Positions 29 to 42,054 of a stretch of 64,000 bases of DNA are shown piece after piece (position 1 is the first letter of the stretch; each line of letters starts with the position of its first letter). Source of the DNA: Patescibacteria group bacterium. Its GTDB lineage: Bacteria > Patescibacteriota > Patescibacteriia > SG8-24 > DYFX01. The DNA lies in contig JBAZZB010000001.1 of assembly GCA_041659045.1 (NCBI GenBank), positions 198,111 through 262,110 on the forward strand. Direction: 5' to 3'. A program made the translations under genes and the position numbers. Under the pieces are notes generated by a model. That model was given only the letters and a program-made list of their open reading frames with translations, was not told the DNA's origin and searched no databases.

Positions 29-1318
<1,290 letters not shown>

Positions 1319-4991: not shown

Positions 4992-6386
4992 ATGGCACTC
5001 GATCTCGGACACGTGCATCGTATTCATTGTGTCGGTATTGGCGGCATCGGCGTTTCTGCCGCCGCTAAGTTTTTGCGTTTACAAGGAAAGGACGTGAGCG
5101 GTTCCGATACGACGCGTTCCGTCGTGACGGCTGATGCTGAGCGCGCCGGTGTGCGCGTGGTGGAGCCACTTGCCGAGAACATCACCCCAGACATCGATCT
5201 CCTCATCTATACGTCCGCCGCGCCGGAGACGCAGCTTGAACGCCAAGCGGCGGCTGCCTTCGGTATCCCGCAGTTCAGTTATTTCGAATTCCTCGGATTG
5301 TTGTCCGAGGGGTACAAAACAATTGCGATCTCCGGCACGAATGGAAAATCGACGACAACCGCGATGCTTGCGCTCATGCTTGAGAAAGCGGGCCTGGACC
5401 CGACCGTCATTGTCGGAAGTCGCGTGCCGAGTTTCGAATACGGAAACCTCCGCGTTGGAAAAAGCAATCTTTTTGTCGTTGAAGCTTGCGAATATCGCGA
5501 GCAGTTCATGAGTCTCTCTCCTTCGATGGTCGTGGTCACAAAAATCGTTGAAGATCACCTCGACTATTACCGCGATCTCGCGCATATCCAAGAAACCTTC
5601 AAGGCGTTTGCCGCGAAGGTACCAGCAGAAGGATCGCTTATTTGGAATGCGGATGACGCGGCGAGCCGCGAGACATTCAGCGGTTTCGAGCAATCAAACG
5701 GAACATTCGGTTTTTCAAAAGAGGCAGAGGTGCGCGCCGAACAGCATGAAACCGCCGAGGGTGTTCAGCGGTTTGATGCTGTCTTTAAGGACGGTGTCGT
5801 TTGGCACGGTTTGGAGATGCATGTTCCAGGGGCATTCAACGTCTTAAACGCGCTTGCGGCGATCGCTGCGGCGCGTTCGCTTGGAGCGAGCGAGGTGGCC
5901 GTGCGCGAGGCGCTGGCTTCCTTTGCCGGTATTTGGCGTCGCTTTGAAAAAGTTGGCGAGCGATATGGTGCGCCTGTTATTTCAGACTATGGACACACGC
6001 CCGACGCGATCGAAGCGACGCTGAAAGCTGCGAAAGAGTTTTTCCCAGGGAAGAAACTGATCGTTGCCTTTCAACCGCACCATCACGACCGCACGCGCAA
6101 ACTCTTCGATGCCTTCATTCCAGCCTTTGATGCCGCAGACACGCTCGTCCTTTCCGAGATCTACGGCGTCGAGGGACGCAAGGAGGGTGAGAGCGAGATC
6201 TCCTCGCGGCAACTGGTGGAAGCGGTCGAAGCGCGCGGGAAGGTGTCAGCCGTCAGCTACGCCGCCACGCCCGACGAAGCTCTGCGTCAACTCGAGGCGC
6301 TTGATACGGAAAATGCTATGATGCTCATTATGGGCGCAGGCGACATCTATTCCATCGCGTATCCACTATGCAGAACATCCCGATGA
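4992..6386 (+). CDS. murC: UDP-N-acetylmuramate--L-alanine ligase
   Basis: 464 aa; N-terminal IHCVGIGGIGVSAAAKFLRLQGKDVSGSD Rossmann region typical of MurC; Mur-ligase P-loop ISGTNGKSTTTAM. Confidence 0.75.
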   Translation: MALDLGHVHRIHCVGIGGIGVSAAAKFLRLQGKDVSGSDTTRSVVTADAERAGVRVVEPLAENITPDIDLLIYTSAAPETQLERQAAAAFGIPQFSYFEFLGLLSEGYKTIAISGTNGKSTTTAMLALMLEKAGLDPTVIVGSRVPSFEYGNLRVGKSNLFVVEACEYREQFMSLSPSMVVVTKIVEDHLDYYRDLAHIQETFKAFAAKVPAEGSLIWNADDAASRETFSGFEQSNGTFGFSKEAEVRAEQHETAEGVQRFDAVFKDGVVWHGLEMHVPGAFNVLNALAAIAAARSLGASEVAVREALASFAGIWRRFEKVGERYGAPVISDYGHTPDAIEATLKAAKEFFPGKKLIVAFQPHHHDRTRKLFDAFIPAFDAADTLVLSEIYGVEGRKEGESEISSRQLVEAVEARGKVSAVSYAATPDEALRQLEALDTENAMMLIMGAGDIYSIAYPLCRTSR

Positions 6387-8578
6387 AACCGCTCGATTCG
6401 TTCCTCTTGAAGCTCGTTCGCTACGGCTTGTTCGCGGTGTTCGCGATCCCGTTTCTTGTTTGGCTGAGCCACCTCTATCCGTGGGTGACTGGCAAGATCT
6501 TGAGTTTTGAAATTATCGTCGCACTGCTCTTCCCGTGCTACGTTCTGCTCGCCTTTCGTCGCAAAGAATTCCGTCCTTCCAAGTCGCCATTCCTCTACGC
6601 GATGCTCGCGTATTTTGCGATCGCGACGCTCTCGATGCTCTTGGGGGATAACGTGAACCGTAGTTTCTGGTCAAAGCCTGACCGTTTGACGGGCTTGTTC
6701 TTCCAATACCATCTCCTCGCCTTTTTCCTGATGGCGGGCGCGACCTGGCGTAAGGTTGTCGTGCAACCTGTGATTGCGGCGACGATTTCAGCAATCATTC
6801 TCTCACTCCACGCGCTCATCCAGGTTGCGCTCCCGGCTGCTGGTGCTGTTGACGTGCGCGGATCCGCGACGCTCGGCAACGCCAGCTATCTCGGGCAGTA
6901 TCTCGTGCCGCACCTGTTCCTCGCGGCGTGGTTGGTGCTCCGTTATTGGAAAACATCGATGCGCTGGCTCTGGCTTGCTGCCGGTGCGGTGGTGATGTTC
7001 GGCATCATCAGCACGAAATCCAAAGGCGCACTCTTGGGTGTGCTGCTTGGCGTGCTCGTCGCCTCACTCATCGCGGCGGTACGCGGTGGTAAACGCGCTC
7101 GGAAATTCAGCTTGATCGGGCTCGGACTCGTCGCCTTGGCCGTTGTCGCCTACCTGATCGGTAACCAGGTGTATCCGTTCAAACGCTGGTTGTACGATGG
7201 ACGCTTGTCGATTCAGTATTTCCAAGAAACGAGCAACTCTCGTAAACTGCTGATCGAAAACGCCATCAAGGGTATTTCGCAGCGCCCGCTTCTCGGTTGG
7301 GGCCCTGAAAACTTTGAGAGCGGCTACTACTACAACTACAATCCGAAGACGCTGGTTTTCGGCGAGTACGAAACGCGCCAGGACCGTCCGCATAACCTCG
7401 TCCTGGAGATGCTGCATAACCTTGGCGTAATCGGCTTCCTGGCCTACGCGGCGGTGTTTGCGTTCGCGGTGCGCTTGGCTGTTTCCAAAAAGCGTGAGGA
7501 TTGGGTGCTTGGTGGTGGCTTGGCTGTCGCTGCCTTCTCACAAGTCGGCACGAACCTTTTCATTTTTGAGACGCCGATGTCGTACTTGGCGCTCTTCTTC
7601 ATGTTCTCCTTGGTTGCGGCCGATGCGGCCTCGCACGAGGAGCGCGAAGAGGGCTCTGATGAATCGACGCAAGCCGCGGTACCGCTCGCGCTTATCGTTG
7701 GCGTGCTGAGTATCTGGTGCCTGTACACAGTTTCAACGACGATCCGCGCCGCGAAGATTACGGCACAGATGATCATGGCCTTGTCCCAACAAGGTCGTTC
7801 GGCCGAAGAGTGGAACGGCATGCTTACGGAATTGCGTAAAAATGAATCTCCGTTTTACGAACGCCATATTCGCGCTACGACGTCGCATCTGAGCCAAGCG
7901 CGCGGCGAATATCTTGATGGTCCGTATCTTCCGATTTTGATCGATCTGGCCGACGATGAATATCGGCGCTTCAAAAATCGCAATGACTACGTTCAAGCGC
8001 TCGTCATCTCATCAGCGTACCTGAGTTTCGGGCCGCGTACGCCTGAACAACAGGCTGCGCTCGAAGATGCCGCCGCCCGCGCGGCCGAACGTTCGCCGAA
8101 TCGGCACGAAGTCGAAATCATTCTGGCGCAAATCGCCTGGGAAAAGAATCAGCTCGATGAGGCGGAAAAACATATCGTCCGTTTCCGCGACCTTGATCCG
8201 GGAAACATCCTTGGCGATGCTTGGTGGGTGCGCTGGCAGCTAGAGTTCCGTGACCCTGTCGTAGCAGCCACGTATTTGGCGCAGAAACCGGAAATGAAGA
8301 ACAACCAAGACGCTTGGGATCAAGTCGAATACGGCACGTTGCATCTGCTCAACCAGCGCCGTTGGAAGGATCTCGTTGCCTTGCAGAAAGCTTCCGTTGA
8401 AGCGAAGTCTCGCAACGTCCAATGGGACCTTGTCGGCGCGATTGGTGCATGGGCGCTCGGTGACAAAGCAAAAAGCGATATGATTATCAGCGAGGCGCGC
8501 GCTCTCTATCCAGAGAAACTTGATTTGGTGGAAGCGATCGCCGGCCAGCGCGAAAGTATCGTTACGAACGGCGGCTAA
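6368..8578 (+). CDS. Wzy_C / O-antigen ligase family polytopic membrane protein with an approx. 300-aa C-terminal helical domain
   Basis: 736 aa; at least 10 predicted TM helices in the first approx. 430 aa; O-antigen-ligase-type motif HNLVLEMLHNLGVIGF after the periplasmic loop (GWGPENF); C-terminal soluble helical-repeat region. Confidence 0.6.
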   Translation: MQNIPMKPLDSFLLKLVRYGLFAVFAIPFLVWLSHLYPWVTGKILSFEIIVALLFPCYVLLAFRRKEFRPSKSPFLYAMLAYFAIATLSMLLGDNVNRSFWSKPDRLTGLFFQYHLLAFFLMAGATWRKVVVQPVIAATISAIILSLHALIQVALPAAGAVDVRGSATLGNASYLGQYLVPHLFLAAWLVLRYWKTSMRWLWLAAGAVVMFGIISTKSKGALLGVLLGVLVASLIAAVRGGKRARKFSLIGLGLVALAVVAYLIGNQVYPFKRWLYDGRLSIQYFQETSNSRKLLIENAIKGISQRPLLGWGPENFESGYYYNYNPKTLVFGEYETRQDRPHNLVLEMLHNLGVIGFLAYAAVFAFAVRLAVSKKREDWVLGGGLAVAAFSQVGTNLFIFETPMSYLALFFMFSLVAADAASHEEREEGSDESTQAAVPLALIVGVLSIWCLYTVSTTIRAAKITAQMIMALSQQGRSAEEWNGMLTELRKNESPFYERHIRATTSHLSQARGEYLDGPYLPILIDLADDEYRRFKNRNDYVQALVISSAYLSFGPRTPEQQAALEDAAARAAERSPNRHEVEIILAQIAWEKNQLDEAEKHIVRFRDLDPGNILGDAWWVRWQLEFRDPVVAATYLAQKPEMKNNQDAWDQVEYGTLHLLNQRRWKDLVALQKASVEAKSRNVQWDLVGAIGAWALGDKAKSDMIISEARALYPEKLDLVEAIAGQRESIVTNGG

Positions 8579-9759: not shown

Positions 9760-11979
9760 ATGAAAGTCGTTTTTGCTACCGGCATTTTTCCCCCCGACAT
9801 TGGCGGCCCCGCCACCTCGGTTTCAGCGTTGGCTGAAGCCTGGAGCGCGCGCGGGCACCGGGTTACGGTTGTGACGTATTCAGAGCACGAATCTGACGGG
9901 ATTCGCTCCGCCTATTCCGTCGTTCGTATTCCTCGCGCTCAGGCAGCTTGGAAGCGTTATGTGAACTTCACTCGCGCTGTCTGGCGCGCTTCGGATGAAT
10001 CTGGTCCAATTTTTGCGCAGGACGCCATCGCTTCCGGCTTGCCGGCACTTTGTGTCGCGTGGCTGCGACGCCGCAAACTCATTCTGCGCATCGCTGGGGA
10101 TTTTGCCTGGGAACAGGCGCAGGTAAAATACGGCTACGGCGACTCGCTCGAAAAATTTCAAAACGACTCAAACGTTCCGTTCGTGCCGATGTTGTTGCGT
10201 GCCGTGCAGCGCTTCGTGTACCGACGCGCGGATATGGCGATCGCTCCGAGTCGATACCTTGCCGACGTCTTGCGCGGTTGGGGTGTTCCGGATCGCCGCA
10301 TTCGCATGATCAACAACGGTGTGCATCTGCCGGAGGCTGCAGCACAGCGTGGCAAGTTTCCACATCGCATCGTTGCCGCGGGACGTTTGGTGCCGTGGAA
10401 AAATTTTGACGTGCTGCTCAAAGCGCTGCCGCGCGTGCTCGAACGTTTCCCCGATGCGGAACTCTTTATCGCGGGCGATGGTCCCGAAATGATGCGTTTG
10501 CGCGCACTCGCGAGCGCACCCATGCTTGAACAGCGCGTGACGTTCGCGGGAAAAATGGAACGAGAAGCTCTTTGGAAGATGATTGGAGAAAGCGGCGTCT
10601 TTGCGCTCGTCAGTTCCTACGAGGGTTTTTCGCATCAACTCGTCGAAGCTTCGGCCTGTGGCGCGGCTGTTGTCGCGAGTCGGGCTGGAGGGAATACGGA
10701 ACTTATTGAAGACGGAAAGAACGGGCTCCTGGTCGAACCGGGGGACGCGAATGGTCTCGCCCAGGCCTTGATCCGTTATTTGGAAGACCCGTCGTTCGCC
10801 CGCGCCTGCGCGGACGAAGCCTTGAAAGATTCCGGGCGTTTTTCAATCGAGCGCCAAATTGCGGAAACGTCGGAAACCGTCCTTGGAAAGCCAGGGCTTC
10901 GCGTCGTGCTGGTGAGCCGCGATGGGACGGTCGTCGACTCGTCCTCGCGCACGGCCGCGCGCATGCGTGCGTACGGAGAACGTGTTGATCACTTGCGCGT
11001 CGTCAGTCTCGCCAAACAAGAACCAGCTTCGGTTGAGCTCTCCGCGCGCGTGCATGCCGATGTTATCGATGTGCGCGGCTACCCGCTGCCATGGAGTCTT
11101 GTTCGTCAGGTACGTGAAGCGATCGTGGCCGAGCAGGCGACGCTTGTTGTTGCGCAAGACCCGTTTGAAGCGGGAATCGTTGCTGCCGCGGCTTCTTACG
11201 CCGAGCAGGTTCCTTTTGTTGTCGAAGAGCATGGCGGGGTCTACCTGTCTGACCATTGGCGGCAGGAAACTTTAAAAAACAAGCTTCTTTTTCCCCTCGG
11301 ACTTCGCGTGCTCAAGCGCGCGTCGGGTATTCGCGTTGTGAGCGTGAAAATTGAGGAAGATTTGCATCAGCGCTTGCCCGCCGCTTCGATTACCAGAATC
11401 CCGGTCTATACCGAACCTCGGGTTTGTCGATCGAGCGCGCCCGCGCATGTGTTTGGCTACGTTGGACGTTTTGTGCCGCAAAAGAATCTGTTCGGACTTC
11501 TTGAGGCCTTCGCTATCGTCGCGAAAGCGCTTCCACAAGCGAAGCTTATTCTCGTGGGTGCTGGTCCGTTGGAGAATGCGCTACAGGCACGCTCGTTCGT
11601 GCTTGGAGTGTCAGGACGCATTGAATGGGTTGCGCACACGGAAAGCGTCGATGCCATTTATGAGCGCATCGGAACACTCGTACTTTCTTCGTGGTACGAA
11701 GGTTGGGCGCGTGTCGTGCCGGAGGCAATGTCGTGCGGCATACCAATTGTGATGACTAACGTCGGCTGCGCGAACGAGCTTCCGCGCAATGGTGTCGAAG
11801 GCTACGTTGTTCCGGTTGGAAACGACGAGGTTTTGGCCAAAGCGATGATCGATATCGTGCAATCCGGAAAACATGGCTTGATGGGGGCGGCCGCCAAACG
11901 ACGCGTTGAAACATCGCCGACGCCGCAAGAGCTCGGTGATCGCCTCGTTGATTTTTGGAAGCGACACGGTTCCGCCTAG
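9760..11979 (+). CDS. tandem double GT4 glycosyltransferase
   Basis: 739 aa; two complete GT4 units, each with its own E-x7-E motif (SSYEGFSHQLVEASACGAAVVASRAGGNTELIEDGKNGLLVEPGD and SSWYEGWARVVPEAMSCGIPIVMTNVGCANELPRNGVEGYVVPVGN). Confidence 0.7.
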   Translation: MKVVFATGIFPPDIGGPATSVSALAEAWSARGHRVTVVTYSEHESDGIRSAYSVVRIPRAQAAWKRYVNFTRAVWRASDESGPIFAQDAIASGLPALCVAWLRRRKLILRIAGDFAWEQAQVKYGYGDSLEKFQNDSNVPFVPMLLRAVQRFVYRRADMAIAPSRYLADVLRGWGVPDRRIRMINNGVHLPEAAAQRGKFPHRIVAAGRLVPWKNFDVLLKALPRVLERFPDAELFIAGDGPEMMRLRALASAPMLEQRVTFAGKMEREALWKMIGESGVFALVSSYEGFSHQLVEASACGAAVVASRAGGNTELIEDGKNGLLVEPGDANGLAQALIRYLEDPSFARACADEALKDSGRFSIERQIAETSETVLGKPGLRVVLVSRDGTVVDSSSRTAARMRAYGERVDHLRVVSLAKQEPASVELSARVHADVIDVRGYPLPWSLVRQVREAIVAEQATLVVAQDPFEAGIVAAAASYAEQVPFVVEEHGGVYLSDHWRQETLKNKLLFPLGLRVLKRASGIRVVSVKIEEDLHQRLPAASITRIPVYTEPRVCRSSAPAHVFGYVGRFVPQKNLFGLLEAFAIVAKALPQAKLILVGAGPLENALQARSFVLGVSGRIEWVAHTESVDAIYERIGTLVLSSWYEGWARVVPEAMSCGIPIVMTNVGCANELPRNGVEGYVVPVGNDEVLAKAMIDIVQSGKHGLMGAAAKRRVETSPTPQELGDRLVDFWKRHGSA

Positions 11980-12968
11980 GCTTCTACGTCGTAGAAGCCT
12001 TTTTCGTTCTTTGAAAACTCGCGAATTTGTTCAAGAGGGCTCACGCAAAGGTCATTCGGTTTCAAGACAAAAGGAGCAATGTGCTCGTGGACGAGCAGGA
12101 GGCCACCGACGCAGCGCACGAGCCATTTTCCGTTTGGAAAGACTTCAAGAACAGTTCCGGCGCCTAACGTGGCTTGTCCATATTCGATCGTGTCCGTCTC
12201 AAAAATGGCAGCGCGCATGATCGTGACTTTTTCACCGCGTACGTACGTGAAAGCTCCGTTGAAAGGCGGTGCGACGGCGCGAATGAAGCGTTCGATCTCT
12301 ACGAGTCCGGTGCGCCAGTCGATCAGGCTGTCTTCGGGATTGCGTTTCGGATAGAACGTCGGCATTTCGTCGCTTTGTGCTTTCAGCGCAAAACTCCCAT
12401 CGCAAAGCGCGGCAAGATTTTTGGTGATGAGGCGTTTCATCGCCAAGGCGTTTTTGAAATGCATCGTTTCGGCGGTGTCTTCCGGACGGATCGTAAATTT
12501 GAACGTGTCCAGTACGGCGCCGGAATCGACGCCGGCATCGTAGCGAAAAAGATTGGTGTAAAACGCGTTGCGGCCTTCCAGAATCGACCAGTTCATGGGT
12601 GAACGGCCGCGTCCCTTCGGCAGGTTCTCGGCGCTGCCATGCATGCCGAAGGCTCCGATACAGATGAAATCGAGAACATCGGCGGGAATCAGGCGCTGCC
12701 AGCCGATCACGAATGCCAAGTCGAGTTTCATGCCACGGATCGCTTCGATGTCTTCCGCGTCTTTCAAGGTATAGCTGCGCGCGACGTAGCAGGGGATCCG
12801 GTTAGCTTCGGCGAAAGCGCGCAGATCTTCATAATCGGCAACCTCGTTTTTGGCAGCAAGCTCAGGGGAGATCGTAATGAGATGCTGGACGCCTCCCTGC
12901 GCCAAGAGCGCCTCGATCATGAAGCGCGTCGTTTGCTTGCAGCCGAAGATGGCAATCTTCGCGCTCAT
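11976..12968 (-). CDS. sugar N-formyltransferase (Fmt/ArnA N-terminal-domain family)
   Basis: 330 aa; formyl_trans_N-type motif HGSAENLPKGRGRSPMNWSILEGRNAFYTNLFRYDAGVDSGAVLD; last gene of the coupled minus-strand operon. Confidence 0.7.
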   Translation of the reverse strand: MSAKIAIFGCKQTTRFMIEALLAQGGVQHLITISPELAAKNEVADYEDLRAFAEANRIPCYVARSYTLKDAEDIEAIRGMKLDLAFVIGWQRLIPADVLDFICIGAFGMHGSAENLPKGRGRSPMNWSILEGRNAFYTNLFRYDAGVDSGAVLDTFKFTIRPEDTAETMHFKNALAMKRLITKNLAALCDGSFALKAQSDEMPTFYPKRNPEDSLIDWRTGLVEIERFIRAVAPPFNGAFTYVRGEKVTIMRAAIFETDTIEYGQATLGAGTVLEVFPNGKWLVRCVGGLLLVHEHIAPFVLKPNDLCVSPLEQIREFSKNEKGFYDVEA

Positions 12969-13672
12969 GAAGAAATGCGACTACGATACGGGATGCAATT
13001 GTCCGCGACATGCGTTTGGAAGCGGTTGGTGCGCTCGACGACGAAACGATCGAGGAGATCCACGTTGTCTTTGGTGTTCGAGAACATCCACCAGAGCGGA
13101 TGAATGAGGAGATGAATGGCTTTCGTTTGCTTCCATTCTTCCGTTTCGAAAGGGTGCCCGAAGCGAAACATGCCTTGGGAATCGGAAACGTATTTGATGT
13201 CTTTAAAGTATTTGTTCTGGTAGGTGTGCTCGACGCCGCAAAGAGGCGCGTCGCAGCTTTTTAAAAAATCGTTCGGACGATGGACGCTCATGACCGCGAC
13301 CGGCACGCCGAAATACGATTCAAAAAGCGTTTTCTCTTCAAGAAAGCCTTGCTCGATGTTCTCATAGTGCGTCGGATCGAAATGGATGCTGACGCGGTGT
13401 CCACGGGCATGAATCGAGCGAATGTATTCAGCGTTCGCTCGCGAAAACGGATTGTAGGAATCGGAACGCATCAGGAAAAAATACGTCGCTTTCACGCCGA
13501 GCGCGTCTTCCGCCAGCGACATATCGTGCGCCAGCTTCACGTCAAAATCGACGTCGTGACGCACAATCAGTTCTCCGGGGGCACCCGTTGCTTGATCGAA
13601 AAAAATCGGGCGATACCCGTTGAGGGTGAAGCCTTGGAGGAGTGCGGGATATTTTCCGAGATAGCTTTCCAT
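12965..13672 (-). CDS. polysaccharide deacetylase-like (CE4-like) protein, putative
   Basis: Start taken at internal Met (MESYLGKY) at 13672, abutting the DegT stop; contains RHDVD and HARGHRVSIH His/Asp-rich motifs reminiscent of metal-dependent deacetylases; family call is tentative. Confidence 0.4.
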   Translation of the reverse strand: MESYLGKYPALLQGFTLNGYRPIFFDQATGAPGELIVRHDVDFDVKLAHDMSLAEDALGVKATYFFLMRSDSYNPFSRANAEYIRSIHARGHRVSIHFDPTHYENIEQGFLEEKTLFESYFGVPVAVMSVHRPNDFLKSCDAPLCGVEHTYQNKYFKDIKYVSDSQGMFRFGHPFETEEWKQTKAIHLLIHPLWWMFSNTKDNVDLLDRFVVERTNRFQTHVADNCIPYRSRISS

Positions 13673-13676
13673 GTGT

Positions 13677-14702
13677 TCAGTGAATCGGCAGGCTGATGAC
13701 GTGCTTGGCCGCGAACTCGGAATGCGGGAGCAGCTTGTGCTTTCCGAACAATCCGATATACGCCTGCTGCCTGTATACCGGGGTTTCGTAATAGATTGCG
13801 GATGGAATGCCTTCGCGTTCCAATGCTTGGGCAAAGGCCTTGCGATTGCGGACAGTCAGCGTAAAGACGTTATAGGTATGCCCGGGCTGCTCAGGCATCG
13901 CAAGTACGTCCGGATGTTCACGAAATTTTTTGAACCACGTTTCGGCTTGAGAACGGCGGACGTCGAGATCTTCCTCCAGCCACGTCATTTTTTCAAGTAA
14001 AACCGCAGCTTGGATCGTGTCGAGTCGGCTGTTGCCGCCGATGATTTGGTGCACGTATTTTTTCGGCTGTCCGTGGTTCTTGAGCAGCTTAAAACGTTTC
14101 GCGACCGCCGATGAGCGAATGGTGACAGCGCCGCCGTCGCCAAAGCCGCCAAGATTCTTGGTTGGAAAAAAACTGAAACACCCGACATCGCCGAAAGTGC
14201 CCGTACGCTTGCCGTCGTGCTTCGCGCCATACGATTGAGCGCAGTCTTCAACGAGTTTCAGGCGGTATTTCTTGCAAAGGCGCACGATCGGCTTCATGTC
14301 GCAGGCGAGTCCATAGAGATGTACGACAAGTACGGCGCGCGTTCTCTTGGTCATCTTCTTTTCAATCTGCGCGGCATCAATATTGAATGTGCGCGGATCA
14401 ATGTCGACAAGAACGGGTTTCGCGCCGACGGTCGCAATCGCTTCAATGGTCGCGAAGTAGGTGAAAGCCGTCGTAATGACTTCATCGCCCGGTCCGATAC
14501 CGAGTGCCTTGAGACCGAGGGTAAGCGCGTCGGTGCCGGAGTTGCAGGTGATCGTCTCGACGCCAAAATAGTCCGTCATGCGGCGCTCGAGTTCGGTGGT
14601 TTCGGGGCCTCCGATAAATTGTTCAGACGCGACGACGCGTCCGATGCGCGCCAAGAGGCGATCGGTCCTCTCTTTGGAAAGTTTTTGCGAAAAGAATTTC
14701 AT
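13677..14702 (-). CDS. DegT/DnrJ/EryC1/StrS-family PLP-dependent sugar aminotransferase (WbpE-like)
   Basis: 341 aa; fold-type I aminotransferase with PLP-lysine context FSFFPTKNLGGFGDGG; start overlaps the upstream stop (ATGA). Confidence 0.85.
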   Translation of the reverse strand: MKFFSQKLSKERTDRLLARIGRVVASEQFIGGPETTELERRMTDYFGVETITCNSGTDALTLGLKALGIGPGDEVITTAFTYFATIEAIATVGAKPVLVDIDPRTFNIDAAQIEKKMTKRTRAVLVVHLYGLACDMKPIVRLCKKYRLKLVEDCAQSYGAKHDGKRTGTFGDVGCFSFFPTKNLGGFGDGGAVTIRSSAVAKRFKLLKNHGQPKKYVHQIIGGNSRLDTIQAAVLLEKMTWLEEDLDVRRSQAETWFKKFREHPDVLAMPEQPGHTYNVFTLTVRNRKAFAQALEREGIPSAIYYETPVYRQQAYIGLFGKHKLLPHSEFAAKHVISLPIH

Positions 14703-15430
14703 GCGGATGTGGGTCCATCGTAGGTAATTTCGTCGTCGCCGAGTCGGCGCGGACCGCGCACGGTTTCACGTTCCTCAATAATTTGCGCTAGGAGTCCTGG
14801 GAGGCGTGCCAGCGCAAAGATACCGCGCATCGGTTCGGGACCGAAGCCCATGTCGAGCAGAACGGCCGCCATAGCTCCGTCAACGTTGAGTGGTAGAGGT
14901 TTTTTCGCTTCGATGTTCAACGCAGATTCCACGCGTTCGGCGAATGCTGAATATGGACCGTAGACACCCAAGGTTTTGGCGTGCGCGAAGAGCGCTGCGC
15001 TGCGACGGTCCTTCGCGAGCAACTTGTGCCCGTATCCGGGCAAGCGGCGGCTGTTGGCACGGGCGCGAGAAACGACGCTGGTAGGATCCTCCTGAGCTTG
15101 CGCAAGGAAAAAACGGGCCGCATCCTCGATCGCACCGCCGTGGAGCGTGCCTTGTGCCAAGATGCCGGCGGCCAAGGCAACATGAGGATCGTTGCCGGAA
15201 GAAGCGACCGCGCGGGCAGTGATCGAAGAAACAGGCGCGGCGCCGTGATCGATCGCGGCGACAAGTACGGCTTCAAGCATGGCGGCTTGTTCTTTGGTCG
15301 GCCAACTTTCGCGCAACAAAAGCCACGTGACTTCCGTAAACGACCGCGTGCCGATCAAAGAGATCAGGTCGTGGCCGCGAAGGATCTCGCGTTCCTTGGT
15401 GACGTGAGAGATGCGTGTGTGGATCTTCAT
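14699..15430 (-). CDS. small citrate-synthase-like protein (citryl-CoA lyase-like)
   Basis: 243 aa; citrate-synthase-type catalytic motif PGYGHKLL (cf. GFGHRVY); the size matches the C-terminal citrate-synthase domain of ACL and CCL; stop and start overlap both neighbours by ATGA. Confidence 0.55.
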   Translation of the reverse strand: MKIHTRISHVTKEREILRGHDLISLIGTRSFTEVTWLLLRESWPTKEQAAMLEAVLVAAIDHGAAPVSSITARAVASSGNDPHVALAAGILAQGTLHGGAIEDAARFFLAQAQEDPTSVVSRARANSRRLPGYGHKLLAKDRRSAALFAHAKTLGVYGPYSAFAERVESALNIEAKKPLPLNVDGAMAAVLLDMGFGPEPMRGIFALARLPGLLAQIIEERETVRGPRRLGDDEITYDGPTSA

Positions 15431-16323
15431 GCGTGGACGGTCGGGTGAATCAATTCTACGAGATCTTCGAAGCGTTCGGCAACCAAGGCTCCGGCGTCCT
15501 GGAGCGCCGCCATTTTCTCACGAGCCGACTGTCCTTTGCCGACGATCGCACCGGCATGTCCGACAACGGTACCTGATGGAAGCGTTTCGGCGAAGGCTCC
15601 TCCGATATGCACTGCGAGCGGCTTCGTGAAGCCGCCGTCCTGCAGTAAGGACACGATTTCCCGTTCGTAATTCACGCCCTGTTCGGCGTAGATCACGACG
15701 GCTTTCGTGGTCGGGTCGGCTTCCATTTCCTTCAGCACGTCAGCGTAGGTCGTGCCGATCAAGAGTTCGCCTCCGACGTGGACAGCGGTGCTCTGTCCAA
15801 GACCGGCCTGGCGCACCAGCCAAGAAAGCTCGTTGGTCATGCCGCCCGAGCGCGAGATGACGCCGATCGGTCCAGGCGCGTAGATTTCATCGACCAAAGG
15901 CCCGCCGACGACTCCGAGGCGACCGATGCCAGGGACGAGGCAGCCGAGTGATCCGGGTCCGATAATCCGCGCGCCGCGTTCGCGCGCCGCAGCGAGGCAG
16001 TAGGCTGCGTCTTTGAGCGGCATTTTTTCCGTCATGACGTTCACGAGCGTAATGCCAGCTTCCAGCGCTTCAAGGATTGCGGCTTTTGCGGCGGCAGGCG
16101 GAACGTAGATTGCCGAGACAGTGGTTTCGGGAAAAGACGTAAGCGCGTCACGGACGGTTTCAAAAACTGGCGCGCCATCGGCGACGTGGCCGCCCTTGCC
16201 CGGCGTGACGCCGCATGGCACGCGCGTGTGATACGCCCGCATGGCCGTGAGTGCCCGCAAGCCCTCCTTACCGGTGATACCCTGGATCAACACCGAAGTG
16301 TTTTCCGTGAGCAAGATACTCAT
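15427..16323 (-). CDS. succinyl-CoA synthetase alpha-like CoA-binding/ligase subunit
   Basis: 298 aa; N-terminal MSILLTENTSVLIQGITGKEG (cf. SucD MSILIDKNTKVICQGFTG); phospho-histidine loop VVGHAGAIVGKG conserved. Confidence 0.75.
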   Translation of the reverse strand: MSILLTENTSVLIQGITGKEGLRALTAMRAYHTRVPCGVTPGKGGHVADGAPVFETVRDALTSFPETTVSAIYVPPAAAKAAILEALEAGITLVNVMTEKMPLKDAAYCLAAARERGARIIGPGSLGCLVPGIGRLGVVGGPLVDEIYAPGPIGVISRSGGMTNELSWLVRQAGLGQSTAVHVGGELLIGTTYADVLKEMEADPTTKAVVIYAEQGVNYEREIVSLLQDGGFTKPLAVHIGGAFAETLPSGTVVGHAGAIVGKGQSAREKMAALQDAGALVAERFEDLVELIHPTVHA

Positions 16324-17390
16324 AGCATCAACGCTTTCATGCGCGCCACGGCATCGTTCATCGAGGTCTCTTTGCCAAAAAGTTCGATCTTCAAACCATT
16401 GCGTTCCGCGCAGGCGCGCAGGAGTTCAAGACCTTCGCGTTCACGCGGGCCAGCGCGGCGGACCACGATCGGATAGGAAGGCTTGAGGGCATCGAGCGCC
16501 TCGGCAAGACCCTCGAACGTTTCCTTGATGTCGGTGAAATTAGCGATGCCGCCGATGATCAGCGCGCCGCGCAGATCCGGCTTCGACAACACGAGCGTCG
16601 CGAGTTCGCGGACTTTTTCTTTCGGTGGGTTCCCGGAATATTCAGCGTAATTGGCCGCATGGAGTCCGGCACGCTGCATGGCATCCATGTTCACGAGGCT
16701 GGCGCCGCCGCCCGAAAAAAGCGTGGCGATGTCGCCGGAGAGCGGATGAAAGGACGCGCCGAAGGCCGAGTGATCATGCACGGCGTCATCGAGCGCGACT
16801 TTCGCATCGAGCGCCACGAGCGTGCCGTCAGCGCGCTCAGCAACGGGGTTCACTTCGATCTGCCTCGCATCTTCTTCAAAAAAAGCTTTAACGATTTTCT
16901 CGCAAAATTCCGGCAGTGCTTTGGCGATCAGGCCCAGCTCGCCGAAAATTGTCTCGAGCGAGCGGCGAGGATCGCGCGGATCAAGCGGAAAGGAACGAAC
17001 GTCGTCGCGCGTCTCGATGCCGGAGCCGCCATGTCTGCCGACGAGCAAAAGCGGACCGTGCACTGCGACATCGTAGACGCACGAGACGTACAGTTCTTGC
17101 GTCGAGACGATATGTTCCTCGAGAAGCGCGCTTGTCACGGGTTGGCCGTTCAGGCCGTCTTTCAACCAGCCGGACACGGCCTTTTCGACGTCGGAAACGG
17201 ATTCGCAAAAAACCACGCCGCCGTGCGCGGCGCGGTTCCCCGCGAGCACCTGCGCCTTGGCGACCCAGCAGCCACCGAGGCTCTTCGCGGCTGCTTCGAT
17301 CTCTTCGACGCGTGAAAGGAGGATTCCGGCAGGAATCGCGATGCCGTGCTTTGCGAGAAGCGCCTTACCTTCGTGCTCGTAGACGTTCAT
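16320..17390 (-). CDS. succinyl-CoA synthetase beta-like ATP-grasp subunit
   Basis: 356 aa; N-terminal [22 protein letters not shown] (cf. SucC MNLHEYQAKQLFARYGLP); ATP-grasp fold throughout. Confidence 0.75.
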   Translation of the reverse strand: MNVYEHEGKALLAKHGIAIPAGILLSRVEEIEAAAKSLGGCWVAKAQVLAGNRAAHGGVVFCESVSDVEKAVSGWLKDGLNGQPVTSALLEEHIVSTQELYVSCVYDVAVHGPLLLVGRHGGSGIETRDDVRSFPLDPRDPRRSLETIFGELGLIAKALPEFCEKIVKAFFEEDARQIEVNPVAERADGTLVALDAKVALDDAVHDHSAFGASFHPLSGDIATLFSGGGASLVNMDAMQRAGLHAANYAEYSGNPPKEKVRELATLVLSKPDLRGALIIGGIANFTDIKETFEGLAEALDALKPSYPIVVRRAGPREREGLELLRACAERNGLKIELFGKETSMNDAVARMKALML

Positions 17391-18438
17391 ACTCTTCCTT
17401 CACGCGCCGCACGAGCTTTTTGAGATTGTGATGTTCAACGACGATCGAGCGCAGCGACTCTCCCATGCGCGCGCGGTCTTCGGCCGACAACGAGAGGCAG
17501 CTGTTGAGCTTTGCCGCAAAGTCCTCGGGACTCCATTCGTAGAAAAGGTACGGCAGCCACTCCCCGAGGTACTCGTTGAAGACGGGTGTGCAGACGAGTG
17601 TTGGAACGCCGCATGACATCGACTCAAGAAAATTCTTTCCGGCGCCGCCGCCGCGCTGCATGGCGACAAACGCCGCTGAACCGCACAAGTAGGGGAGAAT
17701 CTCCCGGTTCGGCACCGGGCCGACGAATTCAAATGCGTCCGACAATCCTGCCGCCGCGATGCGCTCTTTGAGACCGGCGACGTAGGTGACATCGGCATCG
17801 GTGAGTGGGCCGCCAATCATTTGCACAACGAAATCGCGTCGCCCGTAGTTGTTTCTCAACAACGTGCAGGCTTCGACCAGCAAATCGTATTCCTTAATAG
17901 GGGAGAGGCGACCGACGCTCAAAATAACTTTCCGTTCGGGGACGCGCGTCGGTACCGGGCAGCTGAAGAGATCGGGATCGACGCCGTGGCCGACCGCCAT
18001 AAACTTGGGTGAATCGCTGCCACGGAAGCTTTCCTTTGAAACAGAGACAACGCCGTTGCCAATCCAAAGTGCCATGAGCCGCAGCCAGCTGCCTCCTTTG
18101 TGCGCGAACCAGAGCAGTGTCGTTTTGCCCATGAGGCGCCAGAAGAGTCCGCCGAGCGTGACGTACTCCGAGTTCATGTGCACGAAAACGCAATCGTACT
18201 CCTTGCGCAGGCCGAAAATATATTTGTAGAAACGCCAAAGATACTGCAAGCGCGAGCGGTGTTCCTCTTTACCCAGCGAGTGCACGCGCACGTTCGCGGG
18301 AAGATCGTACGCGCCTTTTTTCAAACAGATTACCTCGACGGATTCGAAGACTTCCGCGAAGCGTCTGATCCATTGGTGGATGGCGCCGAGGACGTCGTCG
18401 TTCTTGTCGACAATTTGCGTGATGATCAGGAGCTTCAT
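17365..18438 (-). CDS. glycosyltransferase (GT4-like)
   Basis: Start taken at [10 protein letters not shown] (18438), abutting the LbH gene stop; GT-B architecture; C-terminal Gly-rich donor-binding region. Confidence 0.6.
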
Positions 18439-19025
18439 GCGAGTCGCACTATTCCGCTTTCGAGACGATAGGCCTTTTCGCAACGCGCACAGGATGCCGC
18501 ATTGTTCTCAAACGCGAGTCTTCCACCACATTCGCAAATCCAGCCGATCGGTTTGGCCGGCACGCCGACGACAATGGCGTAGTCGGGGACATCCTTCGTA
18601 ACAACGCAACCAGCGCCAATGAGCGCGTGCGCGCCAATCGTTGTGCCGCAAACAATCGTCGCGTTGGCACCGATCGAGGCGCCTGTCTTAAGTAGCGTCG
18701 GTGACCACGAGCCAAACTTCGGGTAGTCGCGCTTCGGATATTTGGCACGCGGCACGAGATCATTCGTGAACACAACGGAGGGGCCGACGAATACGAAATC
18801 CTCGAGTGTCACGAGATCCCAGACGTCGATATTCGCTTCAAGCTTCACACCGTTACCGAGTACGGCTTTGCCGAAAATCGTGCAGTTGTGGCCGATACCG
18901 CAGTTCTCTCCGATCCTGGCGCCGCTCACGACCTGGCTGTGACGCCAAATTTTGGTACCCGAACCGACCGACGCGTCATTGGCAACGTCGGCGGTTGGAT
19001 GGATCGTTACGCCGTCATGCGGCAT
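18435..19025 (-). CDS. hexapeptide-repeat (LbH) N-acyltransferase (WbpD/PglD-like)
   Basis: 196 aa; hexapeptide-repeat-rich (left-handed beta-helix type) sequence; C-terminal C-x-C...C-x2-C ribbon-like tail. Confidence 0.8.
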
Positions 19026-19812
19026 ACGCGGTATAGAGGGAATCGACGAGCTCGACGGAGGGCAATGTTTCGATCGGGCGCACGCCTTTGCCTTCGAGGA
19101 GGTCGAGATAGACGAGGCGGTGCAAGTTTTCGTACGACAAATTATCCTTCGACGAGAAATTGTAATCCTTGCCGTTCACGACGAAGCGGCGCTGCTGGTT
19201 GGCACGATCTCGATAGATGCCGACCGTCCAGGTGCAGCGGTAGCGCTCGCCTTCGATCACGCCCTTGCCAACCAAGTCGTTTAATTCCGTCGTCGTCACT
19301 TTCGTCGGCGCTCCGAAGATGTGTTGGAGCAGATCGAAATAATGGATGCCGATGTTGTAGAGGGGGCCGCCAGAGCGCCTGTTGTCGCCTTTCCACGTGC
19401 GGAAATATTTCTCGTCGCGATAGACGGAGATATTCATGTCGATCTCGAAGGTACCGCCAGCAGCGACCTGTGCGCGCAGTTCATGCACCATCGGATGATG
19501 ACGCAGCTGCATAACGGTGAACACCTTGTCGAAACCGGCGAGCGATTTGACCGATTCTGCGGAAATGCCGAGAGGCTTCTCACACAAAACAAGCTTGCCG
19601 GCCTCGGCCGCCATGCGCGCCATCGGCACGTGCAGGTCGTTCGGGCCGAGAATCACGATGCAGTCGGTTTTCGGGTTGTCCATCACGCCGGTTTTCCAGC
19701 GGTCTTCGCCGTACGCGGTATTCACCACGTCGATCAATTTTCCACCCAAAGCTTCAATCGCTTCGGCGTGTCGTGGCATGATGAAACCGGTTCCAATGAG
19801 GCTGAAGTTCAT
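19015..19812 (-). CDS. Gfo/Idh/MocA-family NAD(P)-dependent oxidoreductase (WbpB-like sugar 3-dehydrogenase)
   Basis: 265 aa; N-terminal Rossmann [18 protein letters not shown]; first gene of the coupled minus-strand operon. Confidence 0.8.
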
Positions 19813-19820
19813 ACTTCGGC

Positions 19821-19849
19821 ATTATCGGCGCGAAAGGCGGTTTCGTCAA
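19821..19849 (-). promoter_or_regulatory. candidate promoter giving a near-leaderless transcript for the 19812-to-11976 operon
   Basis: Minus strand reads TTGACG (plus 19844-19849), 17-nt spacer, GATAAT (plus 19821-19826), then 8 nt to the ATG at 19812; no SD. Confidence 0.4.
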
Positions 19850-19892
19850 TCAGATCTAGGCAAAAACCGTTTTTTTTGGCAGGATAGGGTTG

Positions 19893-22241
19893 ATGAATAT
19901 CGCCTACGTCGCCAACGTCCGCCTGCCGACTGAGAAGGCGCACGGGCTGCAGATCATGTCTATGTGCCGCGCGTTCGCGAGGAACGGCCACAAGGTGCGG
20001 CTCGTCGTTCCGAAGCGTAAGAACATCCACGATGAATCACCGTGGGCGTTTTACGGTTTCCGTGAGGAGTTCGAAATCGTGCACGTGCCGATCTATGATT
20101 TTATTTCGCATGATCGTGTGCTTGGTCGCGTCGCGTTATGGCTCAACACGCTGCAATTCCTGATTGCTGCGCGCCGCACTGTCCGACGTTTCAAACCGGA
20201 CGTCGTGTATGCCCGCGAAGCGTGGTATGGGAGCTTGGCACCGGAAGTGCCGCATGTTTTTGAAGCGCACGACTTTACCTCGCGCGTGACGCCGTTGCAT
20301 CGCCGTTGGTGGAAGCGCGTTGCGCGTATTGTGACCGTTACGAACGGTCTCAAGAAAGTTTTTGCGGCACAGGGCGTGCCGGAGGAAAAAATGACCGTTG
20401 CTCATGATGGCGTCGACGAAGCGACGTTCGCCGTGCGTGATACAAAAGCGGAAGCGCGCGCTATCCTCGGATTGCCGAGCGAGAGTTTTCTTGCGATCTA
20501 TACCGGACATTTGTACGACTATAAAGGTGCAGACGATTTGTTAGAGGCTGCGGTCTCTGTACCGCAGCACGTCAAAATTCTCTTTGTTGGCGGACGCCCA
20601 AACGACCTCGCGCGTCTGAAAGCGCGAGCAGCCGAACTTCGAACGACGAACGTGCTCTTCGCGGGGCAGGTGCCGCACGCCAAGATCCCGACGTATCTTC
20701 GCGCCGCCGATGTCGCCGTGCTGCCGACGCGCGGAACCGACCGTCACGCGTCGGAGTTTTTGTCGCCGCTCAAATTGTTTGAATATCTGGCGGCCGGCAA
20801 GGCTTTGGTTGCGACCGATCTTCCGTCGGTGCGTGAAGTATTGTCAGGCACGACTGCACTTTTTGTGCCCCCGTCTGACCCCGCGGCCTTGGCAAAAGCT
20901 TTGAGCACGCTCGCAGAGTCACCAGCGCGCGTAGCTTCTTTGGAGCAGGAGAGTTTGCGGCTCGCTGCCACGCATACCTGGACGCGTCGCGCGGAGAGTG
21001 TGCTCGCAGGCCTGAAAGCTTCCAGAGAGGCGCAGCCTTGGTACGCGCGATATCGCGTCGAGTTGCTCTGTGCCGTGCTGGCTTTCGCTCTTCGGTCGCT
21101 GTACGTCGCATACGTCCCCCAACTCAATATTGAAGGCGGCGACGGTACGATTTACCTCAGTCTGTCCGATTACGTGCGCGGCCTTGTCGAGACCGTTCCG
21201 AAAAATGACCTCCGCTTTTTCCCTGTCGGGTATCCGTATTTCTTGGCGGCGATCCGTGGCATTTTTGGCAACGATCTTCTCTGGATCCGTCTTGCGCAGT
21301 CTCTGCTTTCAGCTGCGACTGTCTTCGTTGGCGCACTTGCCGCGCGTCATTGGCTCGGCCGTAAAACCGGACTCCTTGCGGGAGTCCTGCTCGCCACCTA
21401 TTCACCGCTTGTTCTTGAAAGCGGCATTATCTACACCGAGACGCTCTACACATTCCTGCTGACGAGCGCAGTTGTTGTCGCTGTTCTGGCTGTGCAACAC
21501 GAGCGCCTGCGCTACGCCTGTCTTGCTGGTTTTGGTTTTATGTTGGCGGGCCTTACGCGCGAGCTCGGTTTTTATCAAGCGTTGTTGTTTGGTGGCTGGG
21601 CGCTTCTTTCACGGCGTTCGTGGAAGCTCGCGGCGCTGCTCGTGATCCCTACACTTCTCGCGTTTGGTGGGTTGTCTTTGCGAAATACGGCTATTGCCGA
21701 AAAGCACGCGCTGCGCGAGCAGCCGCTCGTTTCGAAAAACTACGAGCAAGCGCTTTTTGAGCCGACGCTCCTCGAGTTCTTGTTCTCGCCGTCACGCTGG
21801 CATTTCTACGTCGAAGGCACGTATCTGTATTGGCGCTTTCCACATCGTTTGGGCGACGTTGGAGCAGGGGAGCCGGTCGAGGATAAAACGAATCCTGATG
21901 GCGATGTCGTGTACCACCTGAATCCCAAGGCTGGATATTTCATGGCGGTGCAACCCATGCGCCAGGTGATCGTCAAATGGCTCTTGGTGCTCACGCACTG
22001 GTTTGTCCTGTTTCTTGCCGCCTATGGTTTCTGGCGTGGGAAGTTCTCGCGAGAAGTGAAAATTGGTTTCGCGCTCGCGATCCTCTTCGCTTTCGGCACG
22101 ATCATGCTCGGCGGCATGCATCGTTTGCAAGCCTTCGAGGGGTTCGAACCGCTCGCGCGCTATCGATTCCCAACCGAGCCGCTTATTCTTCTTCTCGCTG
22201 TCGCCGGCGCACAGGCGCTCGAGCTTCGCCGCAAGCGCTGA
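19893..22241 (+). CDS. fusion of GT4 glycosyltransferase and polytopic GT-C-like (PMT/ArnT-like) membrane domain
   Basis: N-terminal approx. 370 aa GT4 (MMNIAYVANVRLPTEKAHGLQ...) then approx. 400 aa with 10 or more TM helices; the track ORF starts with TTG at 19890, ATG at 19893. Confidence 0.65.
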   Translation: MNIAYVANVRLPTEKAHGLQIMSMCRAFARNGHKVRLVVPKRKNIHDESPWAFYGFREEFEIVHVPIYDFISHDRVLGRVALWLNTLQFLIAARRTVRRFKPDVVYAREAWYGSLAPEVPHVFEAHDFTSRVTPLHRRWWKRVARIVTVTNGLKKVFAAQGVPEEKMTVAHDGVDEATFAVRDTKAEARAILGLPSESFLAIYTGHLYDYKGADDLLEAAVSVPQHVKILFVGGRPNDLARLKARAAELRTTNVLFAGQVPHAKIPTYLRAADVAVLPTRGTDRHASEFLSPLKLFEYLAAGKALVATDLPSVREVLSGTTALFVPPSDPAALAKALSTLAESPARVASLEQESLRLAATHTWTRRAESVLAGLKASREAQPWYARYRVELLCAVLAFALRSLYVAYVPQLNIEGGDGTIYLSLSDYVRGLVETVPKNDLRFFPVGYPYFLAAIRGIFGNDLLWIRLAQSLLSAATVFVGALAARHWLGRKTGLLAGVLLATYSPLVLESGIIYTETLYTFLLTSAVVVAVLAVQHERLRYACLAGFGFMLAGLTRELGFYQALLFGGWALLSRRSWKLAALLVIPTLLAFGGLSLRNTAIAEKHALREQPLVSKNYEQALFEPTLLEFLFSPSRWHFYVEGTYLYWRFPHRLGDVGAGEPVEDKTNPDGDVVYHLNPKAGYFMAVQPMRQVIVKWLLVLTHWFVLFLAAYGFWRGKFSREVKIGFALAILFAFGTIMLGGMHRLQAFEGFEPLARYRFPTEPLILLLAVAGAQALELRRKR

Positions 22242-29071: not shown

Positions 29072-29111
29072 CACCGGACGTTTTTTCGGAGAGGATCGGC
29101 GCGGAGGAATC

Positions 29112-29975: not shown

Positions 29976-30006
29976 CAGGGGTGGGTCTTTTTGTTACGTT
30001 CGCGCC

Positions 30007-30903: not shown

Positions 30904-30929
30904 GAACCCGTACGAGCAAGGAGAACATC

Positions 30930-41972: not shown

Positions 41973-42054
41973 ACGATCCGATGCTACATGATCGCCATTA
42001 TTCCTTCAATATAGAAAAAAGCCGCATACGAGTTGTATGCGGCCGTCGTGAGTC

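Follow-up and report, generated by a model that had tools for sequence, protein, structure and literature searches.

Why should putative citrate-cleaving enzymes be encoded inside an operon for amino-sugar modification? The question is raised by 64,000 nucleotides of DNA from a Patescibacteria group bacterium (contig JBAZZB010000001.1, positions 198,111 to 262,110; this whole stretch is hereafter the window), in which three adjacent genes, here called the trio, encode homologs of the two subunits of citryl-CoA synthetase (CCS) and of citryl-CoA lyase (CCL), and stand between genes for amino-sugar and glycan enzymes. The answer favored here, with moderate confidence and from homology and gene context, is that the trio would act as a dedicated supply of acetyl-CoA, obtained by citrate cleavage, for the N-acetylation of cell-wall or surface-glycan amino sugars.

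A first-pass annotation, made from the letters of the DNA alone, had described three consecutive, ATGA-coupled genes encoding SucC-like, SucD-like and citrate-synthase-like proteins. The open reading frames (ORFs) were found exactly where it had placed them, together with the overlaps, the Pfam domains, the phospho-His loop and the PGYGHKLL motif:

16320..17390, minus strand: CCS beta (large) subunit homolog, 356 aa, with an ATP-grasp domain and a citrate-binding domain of the ATP-citrate lyase (ACL) type

15427..16323, minus strand: CCS alpha (small) subunit homolog, 298 aa, with CoA-binding and ligase-CoA domains and a GHAGA phospho-His loop

14699..15430, minus strand: CCL homolog with a short citrate-synthase fold, 243 aa (NCBIfam NF004869; PDB 6hxp)

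The beta subunit combines the Pfam ATP-grasp_2 domain (4e-27) with PF16114, the 'ATP citrate lyase citrate-binding' domain (1.8e-30). Its best match in the PDB is the Hydrogenobacter thermophilus CCS large subunit (6hxq_B, 144 bits), compared with 113 bits for Chlorobium ACL-B and about 105 bits for the beta subunit of succinyl-CoA synthetase (SCS); its C-terminal domain alone scores 84 bits on CCS, 66-74 bits on ACLs and at most 40 bits on SCS-beta. In particular, the motifs EYSG (EYSGNP), ANFT (IANFTD) and VRRAGP align with G309, N346-F347-T348 and R378-R379 of human ACLY (numbering counted from the alignment to 3mwd), where G309, N346-T348 and R379 are presumably the citrate-contacting residues of the ACLY structure literature. 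These motifs (EYSG/ANFT/VRRxGP) are kept in 62-66 of 68 homologous beta subunits. The alpha subunit contains the Pfam CoA_binding, Succ_CoA_lig and Ligase_CoA domains and carries VVGHAGAIVGKG; the GHAGA phospho-His loop is found both here and in 66 of 69 family members. Its PDB scores are 207.4 bits on the CCS small subunit (6hxq_A) and 211.7 bits on Aeropyrum SCS-alpha.

The lyase matches Pfam Citrate_synt (PF00285, 1.3e-39) only across profile positions 162-350 of 357, the C-terminal half, and it carries PGYGHKLL. It scores 165.7 bits on the H. thermophilus CCL (6hxp), at most 73 bits on ACL modules and at most 62 bits on citrate synthases, and it exceeds the NCBIfam cutoff for citryl-CoA lyase (NF004869, 218.7 bits versus 212). 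Residues H97 (HGG), H135 (GYGH), D184 (NVDG), R143, R209, R228 and R229 are invariant in the alignment of homologs and identical in the alignment to 6hxp; the first three we take, from their motifs, to be the equivalents of His274, His320 and Asp375 of pig citrate synthase. The HGG, G[YF]GH and N[VI]DG motifs are kept in nearly all lyase homologs. Because the citrate-binding, phospho-His and citrate-synthase catalytic motifs are conserved, all parts of the trio look catalytically competent and citrate-specific.

By homology, the trio is of the split CCS plus CCL type and not a fused ACL. A housekeeping SucCD pair with a citrate synthase fragment is ruled out by the curated cutoffs and the ranking of PDB scores: the SucC model NF001913 gives 171.8 bits versus a cutoff of 370, the SucD model NF004230 gives 241.9 versus 336, and the lyase reaches at most 87 bits on citrate synthase models whose cutoffs are 330 or higher, with 243 aa versus about 370-430 aa for the full-length enzymes. 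A fused ACL is ruled out by the separate genes for the alpha (CoA-ligase) part and the lyase module, which are two ORFs that share only the ATGA at 15427-15430. Pseudogenes or a decayed remnant are ruled out by the intact ORFs, by catalytic motifs kept in about 70 homologs and by an operon kept down to 60% identity. The first-pass annotation had proposed the domain set of either ACL or CCS plus CCL on three polypeptides, which holds and is sharpened to the CCS/CCL type by the 6hxp, NF004869 and 6hxq_B matches; grouping with housekeeping SucCD and citrate synthase, which it had set beforehand as a check, is not what the scores and cutoffs give.

The same residues bear on a rival explanation, in which the ligase and the lyase act on another hydroxy acid or sugar acid (malate, citramalate or a uronic acid) and serve to decorate sugars by way of an unusual acyl-CoA or a branched product. 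It draws on the distance from characterized CCS and CCL enzymes (only about 40-50% identity), on an operon that makes modified amino sugars and includes an enzyme with the fold of carbohydrate esterase family 4 (CE4) and a formyltransferase, both of unassigned specificity, and on a Planctomycetota relative that pairs an SCS-like beta subunit with a CCL-like gene. However, the citrate-binding residues of human ACLY are conserved across the beta family, the His/His/Asp motifs and arginines of citrate synthase are invariant in the lyase, and the same trio is found beside plain hexosamine genes (GlmS, GNAT and the uridylyltransferase domain of GlmU) that need acetyl-CoA only, which makes this explanation improbable. 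Between the two functional ideas of the first-pass annotation, a local supply of acetyl-CoA therefore appears the better candidate, and novel acid-CoA chemistry is disfavored on account of the conserved residues for citrate binding and for citrate-synthase catalysis.

The genes around the trio indicate where acetyl-CoA might be spent. From its sequence, the trio is part of a nine-gene operon that spans 19812 to 11976 on the minus strand, and the remaining features are:

19821..19849, minus strand: sigma-70-like promoter match TTGACG-17-GATAAT (10 of 12 consensus matches), in the 77-bp gap 5′ of the first operon gene

19015..19812, minus strand: WbpB-like GFO/IDH/MocA oxidoreductase (sugar 3-dehydrogenase type), 265 aa (Pfam GFO_IDH_MocA domains; PDB)

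18435..19025, minus strand: WbpD/WlbB-like left-handed beta-helix (LbH) N-acetyltransferase (Pfam Hexapep; PDB 3mqg)

17365..18438, minus strand: GT4 glycosyltransferase (Pfam Glycos_transf_1)

13677..14702, minus strand: WbpE-like DegT-family sugar aminotransferase, 341 aa (Pfam DegT_DnrJ_EryC1, 5e-102; PDB 3nu7)

12965..13672, minus strand: CE4 (NodB)-fold putative sugar de-N-acylase, 235 aa (predicted structure and Foldseek)

11976..12968, minus strand: ArnA-type sugar N-formyltransferase, 330 aa, the last operon gene (Pfam Formyl_trans_N and Formyl_trans_C)

11978..12000, strand not assigned: hairpin with a 10-bp stem, a possible terminator (pattern match only), at the convergent ends of the operon and a plus-strand GT4 gene

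Read directly, the junctions at beta/alpha, alpha/lyase, lyase/DegT and CE4/formyltransferase are ATGA stop/start overlaps, and the others are short overlaps or a 4-nt gap. The GT4 gene probably starts with the ATG at 18438, where it would overlap the acetyltransferase gene by ATGA; a 357-aa ortholog in a related locus (L001; L numbers denote the loci of relatives) supports this start. The overlaps and the single promoter-like site upstream of the first gene count in favor of one operon. The site at 19821..19849 matches a consensus and no more, and promoter-like sites in the region are no more numerous than expected from shuffling; beyond this one plausible upstream promoter, the scan for promoters and terminators is uninformative.

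The LbH acetyltransferase has as its best PDB match 3mqg, the lipopolysaccharide-biosynthesis acetyltransferase WlbB/WbpD, over its full length (169.8 bits, 5e-49). The best PDB matches of the oxidoreductase are the WbpB structures 3oa2 and 3o9z (E 6e-26), and the DegT protein scores 267 bits against the WbpE structure 3nu7. By these matches the operon holds the dehydrogenase/aminotransferase/N-acetyltransferase triad of a 2,3-diacetamido-sugar pathway, an assignment at the level of similarity that does not establish the sugar substrate. The trio and the GT4 gene lie between the wbpD-like and wbpE-like genes. The setting first described, with a WbpD-like acyltransferase and a glycosyltransferase upstream and DegT and formyltransferase genes downstream, is borne out by the 3mqg, WbpE, GT4 and formyltransferase matches.

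Is this linkage peculiar to one genome? Homologs of the lyase are found almost entirely in metagenome-assembled genomes (MAGs) of Patescibacteria, or Candidate Phyla Radiation (CPR) bacteria, including Uhrbacteria, Magasanikbacteria, Kerfeldbacteria, Paceibacteria, Kaiserbacteria and Saccharibacteria. Relatives are encoded in 178 stretches of a one-genome-per-species collection; the closest genome, a complete 1.17-Mb chromosome ('Patescibacteria group bacterium', CP129476.1), has 91% identity and the same operon. Many of the species-representative MAGs with the cluster (L006-L085) are titled 'uncultured Gammaproteobacteria bacterium', a title that, judged by their genes and closest relatives, seems to be a placeholder or a mislabel. 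For the neighborhoods, loci were taken as 10 kb on either side of the matches, and ORFs were called in 80 species loci, labeled by seed proteins and checked with Pfam, NCBIfam and precomputed Pfam annotation; flank counts come from the 43 species loci with full flanks. All three trio genes are co-detected in 60 of 79 related loci, and relatives with as little as 60-63% lyase identity still have the order GFO-LbH-GT4-beta-alpha-lyase-DegT, with the CE4-formyltransferase pair variably present. Because of this co-detection and this kept order, the arrangement of the trio is not chance.

Acetyltransferases are the neighbors that recur. A GNAT or LbH acetyltransferase lies within five genes of the trio in 29 of 43 loci and any hexosamine or glycan seed family in 37 of 43; in five of the other six loci, GlmS-YvcK-GNAT genes stand about nine genes upstream. 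In the two positions directly upstream of the trio, 30 of 112 ORFs are GNATs and 24 are YvcK-like. Among the 333 ORFs no farther than two genes from the trio, 31 encode acetyltransferases; beyond five genes, the figure is 4 of 465. This enrichment is descriptive, since the loci are not phylogenetically independent and a Fisher test overstates its significance. The first-pass annotation had called for a survey of related genomes, and the amino-sugar/glycan link proves to be conserved there and to recur in different arrangements.

These counts also bear on incidental co-location, in which the trio would be a housekeeping remnant of central metabolism (a general supply of acetyl-CoA or oxaloacetate) within a long envelope cluster. 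The first 50 kb of the window consist of envelope and glycan genes, so that any gene there has glycan neighbors, and CPR genomes are compact with long co-directional arrays. However, the trio interrupts a single pathway, between its WbpD and WbpE genes, with overlapping start and stop codons; the acetyltransferase enrichment is specific to the immediate neighbors; and the link has been re-created in at least four different arrangements across classes. Incidental co-location is accordingly regarded as unlikely.

The dominant context in relatives begins with a TrmB regulator, a HAD protein, a 255-aa protein that is the uridylyltransferase half of GlmU only, GlmS and a beta-phosphoglucomutase-family HAD. 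It continues with YvcK/GlmR (UDP-GlcNAc-binding; TIGR01826 above cutoff), a 110-aa GNAT, beta, alpha and the lyase, and ends with variable genes (rRNA methyltransferase, pseudouridine synthase, malic enzyme) followed by a TIGR00375/MJ0043_C PHP protein. An example of this hexosamine 'supercluster' is L060 477-16665, and others are found in L086, L087, L030, L055 and L074. The supercluster suggests that UDP-GlcNAc is made by a non-canonical route, with a stand-alone GNAT in place of the acetyltransferase domain of GlmU. Identifying the 110-aa GNAT by sequence as a GlcN-6-P acetyltransferase was tried and given up, with weak and non-specific matches only (GNA1 to E ~7e-5), and that function is left to what its context suggests. 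A 377-aa malic enzyme lies downstream of the lyase in six species loci (L060 12777-13910 and five others), and L032 has an aspartate-type aminotransferase upstream of the trio.

Further, the trio is found in several rearranged settings, which say more for the link than the counts do. Saccharibacteria have the order GlmS-trio-GNAT (L079); an LbH acetyltransferase is inserted between beta and alpha in L037, and a GNAT between alpha and the lyase in L057. In an Uhrbacteria cluster of pseudaminic/legionaminic type, the trio lies between UDP-sugar dehydrogenases and PseB/PseC/GNAT/cytidylyltransferase/NeuB genes, while a Kaiserbacteria locus combines it with an Acetyltransf_3 GNAT, DegT, GFO, SDR and GT9. 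The common denominator of these arrangements, as annotated, is an acetyl-CoA-dependent amino-sugar N-acetyltransferase of either of two unrelated folds (GNAT or LbH).

The recurrent GNAT invites comparison with protein lysine acetyltransferases of the Pat/PatZ type, which join an NDP-forming acyl-CoA-synthetase-like (ACS-like) domain to a GNAT; the trio and its GNAT could be a split version for regulatory protein acetylation. The alpha subunit weakly matches Pat-type acetyltransferases in the PDB (9isq and 9it0, E ~1e-5), and the small GNATs lack an assignable acceptor, their best matches being generic. However, the catalytic His loop is retained and no ACS-like/GNAT fusion is present, a citrate-binding domain and a lyase gene (neither needed by Pat) always accompany the ligase, the partner in the window and in L037 is an LbH sugar acetyltransferase with a strong WlbB match, and the neighbors are GlmS, YvcK and nucleotide-sugar enzymes. 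A regulatory role of this kind is very improbable.

The direction of the reaction has to be considered as well. The reactions of ACL and of CCS/CCL are reversible, which would permit the trio to run toward citrate, converting acetyl-CoA and oxaloacetate to citryl-CoA and then to citrate and ATP; it would replace citrate synthase while conserving the thioester energy, and its place among glycan genes would be inherited gene order. No canonical citrate synthase was seen in the window, and CPR clusters mix unrelated genes, as such a rival explanation would have it. Against this, the trio has repeatedly relocated beside acetyl-CoA consumers of two unrelated folds, which fits supply and not competition, and none of the examined clusters showed an aconitase or isocitrate dehydrogenase gene by which the citrate could be used. 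We give this alternative little credence.

The gene content, homology, motif conservation, operon structure and conserved linkage are matters of observation, and a mechanism can be laid over them. For a trio that supplies acetyl-CoA, the CCS beta and alpha subunits would convert citrate, ATP and CoA to citryl-CoA, ADP and Pi through a phospho-histidine on alpha, and the lyase would split citryl-CoA into acetyl-CoA and oxaloacetate, so that both steps together would amount to the ATP-citrate-lyase reaction. In a host-dependent Patescibacteria lineage that is poor in tricarboxylic acid (TCA) cycle enzymes, the trio would be no part of a carbon-fixation cycle; it would be co-transcribed with enzymes that spend acetyl-CoA on amino-sugar N-acetylation. 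The predicted consumer in the window is the WbpD-like 3-N-acetyltransferase of a WbpB/WbpE/WbpD-type 2,3-diamino-sugar pathway, and in most relatives it would be the small GNAT beside GlmS, YvcK/GlmR and a GlmU without the acetyltransferase domain. The malic enzyme or the aminotransferase of some clusters may dispose of the oxaloacetate. Citrate as the substrate, the direction of the reaction and the supply role are what we infer from sequence.

A broader proposal is that host-dependent Patescibacteria, which are without a TCA cycle, keep a minimal CCS/CCL solely to turn scavenged citrate into acetyl-CoA for N-acetylation (of UDP-GlcNAc, nonulosonic acids and diacetamido sugars); this is offered tentatively, with belief and doubt nearly in balance. 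If it is true, the trio would be for bacteria what the link between ACLY and the hexosamine pathway is for eukaryotes, and citrate would become a key host-derived metabolite in building CPR cell walls and surface glycans. In a stronger variant, the trio would physically channel acetyl-CoA to the neighboring acetyltransferases.

Several points, besides the shared ancestry of the loci, weigh against a dedicated supply. By its scores, the alpha subunit does not discriminate CCS from SCS. The beta subunit of the window (356 aa) is without a linker of about 33 residues between the ATP-grasp and citrate-binding domains; the linker is present in relatives of 60-77% identity (393-396 aa), and homologs from Saccharibacteria and Kaiserbacteria show the same gap independently. 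Neither a citrate transporter nor a source of citrate was identified in the window or the examined loci, and other sources of acetyl-CoA elsewhere in these genomes (PFOR, Acs, Pta-Ack) may make a dedicated supply unnecessary. Moreover, long co-directional clusters in CPR genomes bring unrelated genes together, and the one that holds the trio contains rRNA methyltransferase and pseudouridine synthase genes as well, so that part of the GlmS linkage may be inherited synteny and not function.

Other variations of the cluster stand apart from these arguments. In many CPR genomes, small extra ORFs (GIY-YIG, methyltransferase, HD_4, TfoX_C and 200-410-aa ORFs without assignment) lie between the trio genes, at L088 1945-2229; L086 5563-6165 and 7145-7999; L087 5660-6420 and 7387-7992; and L074 6930-8162 and 9005-9991. 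Mobile or selfish elements may have inserted themselves here into a gene order that is otherwise conserved. In a Planctomycetota locus (L083 7431-11278), a 521-aa SCS-like beta subunit (no ANFT; VIRLGGN) is followed by alpha, a CCL-like gene and an Acetyltransf_3 GNAT, a different type of ligase paired with the same lyase and acetyltransferase theme. With its SCS-like beta, this locus was dropped as support for the CCS/CCL assignment and is treated as a separate, unexplained case.

What do the last two genes of the operon contribute? The 235-aa ORF (from the ATG at 13672) matches nothing in Pfam, NCBIfam or PDB phmmer searches. Its AlphaFold2 model, built from 33 homologs, has a pLDDT of 95.3, and the top 19 Foldseek matches of this model are all CE4/NodB deacetylases (E from 2.7e-5, TM about 0.45). 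The invariant RHDxD, HxxxxH, RP and LxH residues of the family fit CE4 motifs. The ORF is a putative CE4-fold de-N-acylase, from a family without a Pfam model; the 'deacetylase-like' label of the first-pass annotation is thereby upheld by the predicted fold, though no sequence family matches. The formyltransferase matches NCBIfam NF005414 and ArnA, both below cutoff. The CE4-fold gene is always followed by the ArnA-type formyltransferase gene, both in the operon of the window and in Bacteroidota polysaccharide loci (L089 7001-8690; L090 7001-8714), and together they appear to form a conserved, putative de-N-acylase/N-formyltransferase pair that resembles ArnD/ArnA. A serine hydroxymethyltransferase gene at the edge of the glycan region (29-1318, minus strand) is a possible one-carbon source for the formyltransferase.

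The first 50 kb or so of the window otherwise contain envelope and glycan genes (GT4s, Wzy_C, Mur ligase, Bac_transf, AsnB-like, methyltransferases, MurB, NeuB-like and CTP_transf_3). Three plus-strand genes encode large, unusual envelope proteins and are kept in the relatives L001, L091 and L092: a 736-aa Wzy_C protein with a long C-terminal extension (6368-8578), a 739-aa double GT4 (9760-11979) and a 783-aa GT4 fused to a PMT_2 (GT-C) membrane domain (19890-22241). Two further stretches, 27557-32186 and 41268-47884, hold an AsnB-like amidotransferase, S-adenosylmethionine (SAM) methyltransferases, a C-methyltransferase with a zinc-binding domain, a 596-aa radical SAM protein, a CTP_transf_3 cytidylyltransferase, two SDRs and a NeuB-like gene. 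These tailoring genes suggest a second pathway, of nonulosonic-acid type.

How much of this has been described? CCS/CCL and ACL serve in microbial genomics as marker genes of autotrophic CO2 fixation by the reductive TCA cycle. A 2022 preprint places CPR and DPANN sequences annotated as SCS or citrate synthase in monophyletic groups with CCS and CCL (10.1101/2022.10.25.513756), and a 2025 paper reports that aclAB is enriched in Saccharimonadia MAGs (PMC12577380); as far as the available text of these two sources goes, neither gives the CPR genes a role. Literature searches found no paper that links CCS/CCL or ACL to amino-sugar or O-antigen-type loci, with only passing mentions in CPR, and none describing the arrangement in O-antigen or capsule loci, where the first-pass annotation knew of no case. 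Enzymes of this kind are known, and earlier work has mentioned them in CPR bacteria in passing; what appears to be undescribed is their embedding among glycan and hexosamine genes, and with it a non-autotrophic supply role. The chemistry of the trio is probably conventional. If the supply role is true, CCS/CCL and ACL genes should be read with caution as reductive TCA markers in metagenomes, occurring here in tiny symbiont genomes without such a cycle. It would also offer an answer to where CPR bacteria get the acetyl-CoA with which they build peptidoglycan and surface glycans, and it points to citrate as something they may have to take from their hosts, which is useful for cultivation attempts. 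To glycobiology it would offer a case of an O-antigen-like operon that encodes its own precursor-supply module, for acetyl-CoA.

Compared with known systems, the trio shares its fold family with SucCD, and its alpha subunit scores about equally on archaeal SCS-alpha and the CCS small subunit, but the C-terminal domain of its beta subunit has citrate-binding motifs of the ACL type. In Pat/PatZ-type enzymes, an ACS-like domain without ligase catalysis is fused to a GNAT, whereas the genes here are unfused and the His loop is retained. The operon ends with genes for a CE4-fold protein and an ArnA-type formyltransferase, which resemble ArnD (a CE4 deformylase) and the ArnA formyltransferase domain of the lipid A Ara4N pathway, but the CE4-fold protein is without detectable sequence similarity to Pfam Polysacc_deac_1. 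The flanking genes match structures of WbpB, WbpE and WlbB/WbpD from the UDP-2,3-diacetamido-2,3-dideoxy-glucuronic acid pathway (WbpB/WbpE/WbpD, or WlbA/C/B) of Pseudomonas and Bordetella O-antigen loci, where WbpD uses acetyl-CoA; we know of no described Wbp/Wlb locus with an acetyl-CoA-generating enzyme set, and the window differs in that the trio and a GT4 gene are inserted between wbpD and wbpE.

The closest counterparts are CcsAB and Ccl of H. thermophilus and other Aquificae (6hxq, 6hxp), which provide the best matches for the beta subunit and the lyase and share the three-polypeptide architecture, with an ATP-grasp plus citrate-binding domain, a phospho-His loop and a short lyase with its catalytic motifs. 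They differ in subunit length (429, 353 and 268 aa versus 356, 298 and 243 aa in the window), in the citrate loop (ANNT versus ANFT, the latter as in ACLs) and in setting: citrate cleavage in the Aquificae belongs to an autotrophic reductive TCA cycle, whereas the trio lies in an amino-sugar/glycan operon of a CPR genome of about 1.2 Mb. ACL (Chlorobium AclAB and eukaryotic ACLY) has conserved citrate-binding residues in common with the trio and would be expected to carry out the same overall reaction, but its alpha (CoA-ligase) part is fused to the lyase module, and the lyase of the window scores far higher on free CCL (165.7 bits) than on ACL modules (at most 73 bits). Cytosolic ACLY supplies acetyl-CoA for acetylation, including the hexosamine pathway of eukaryotes, and by analogy the trio may play a parallel role.

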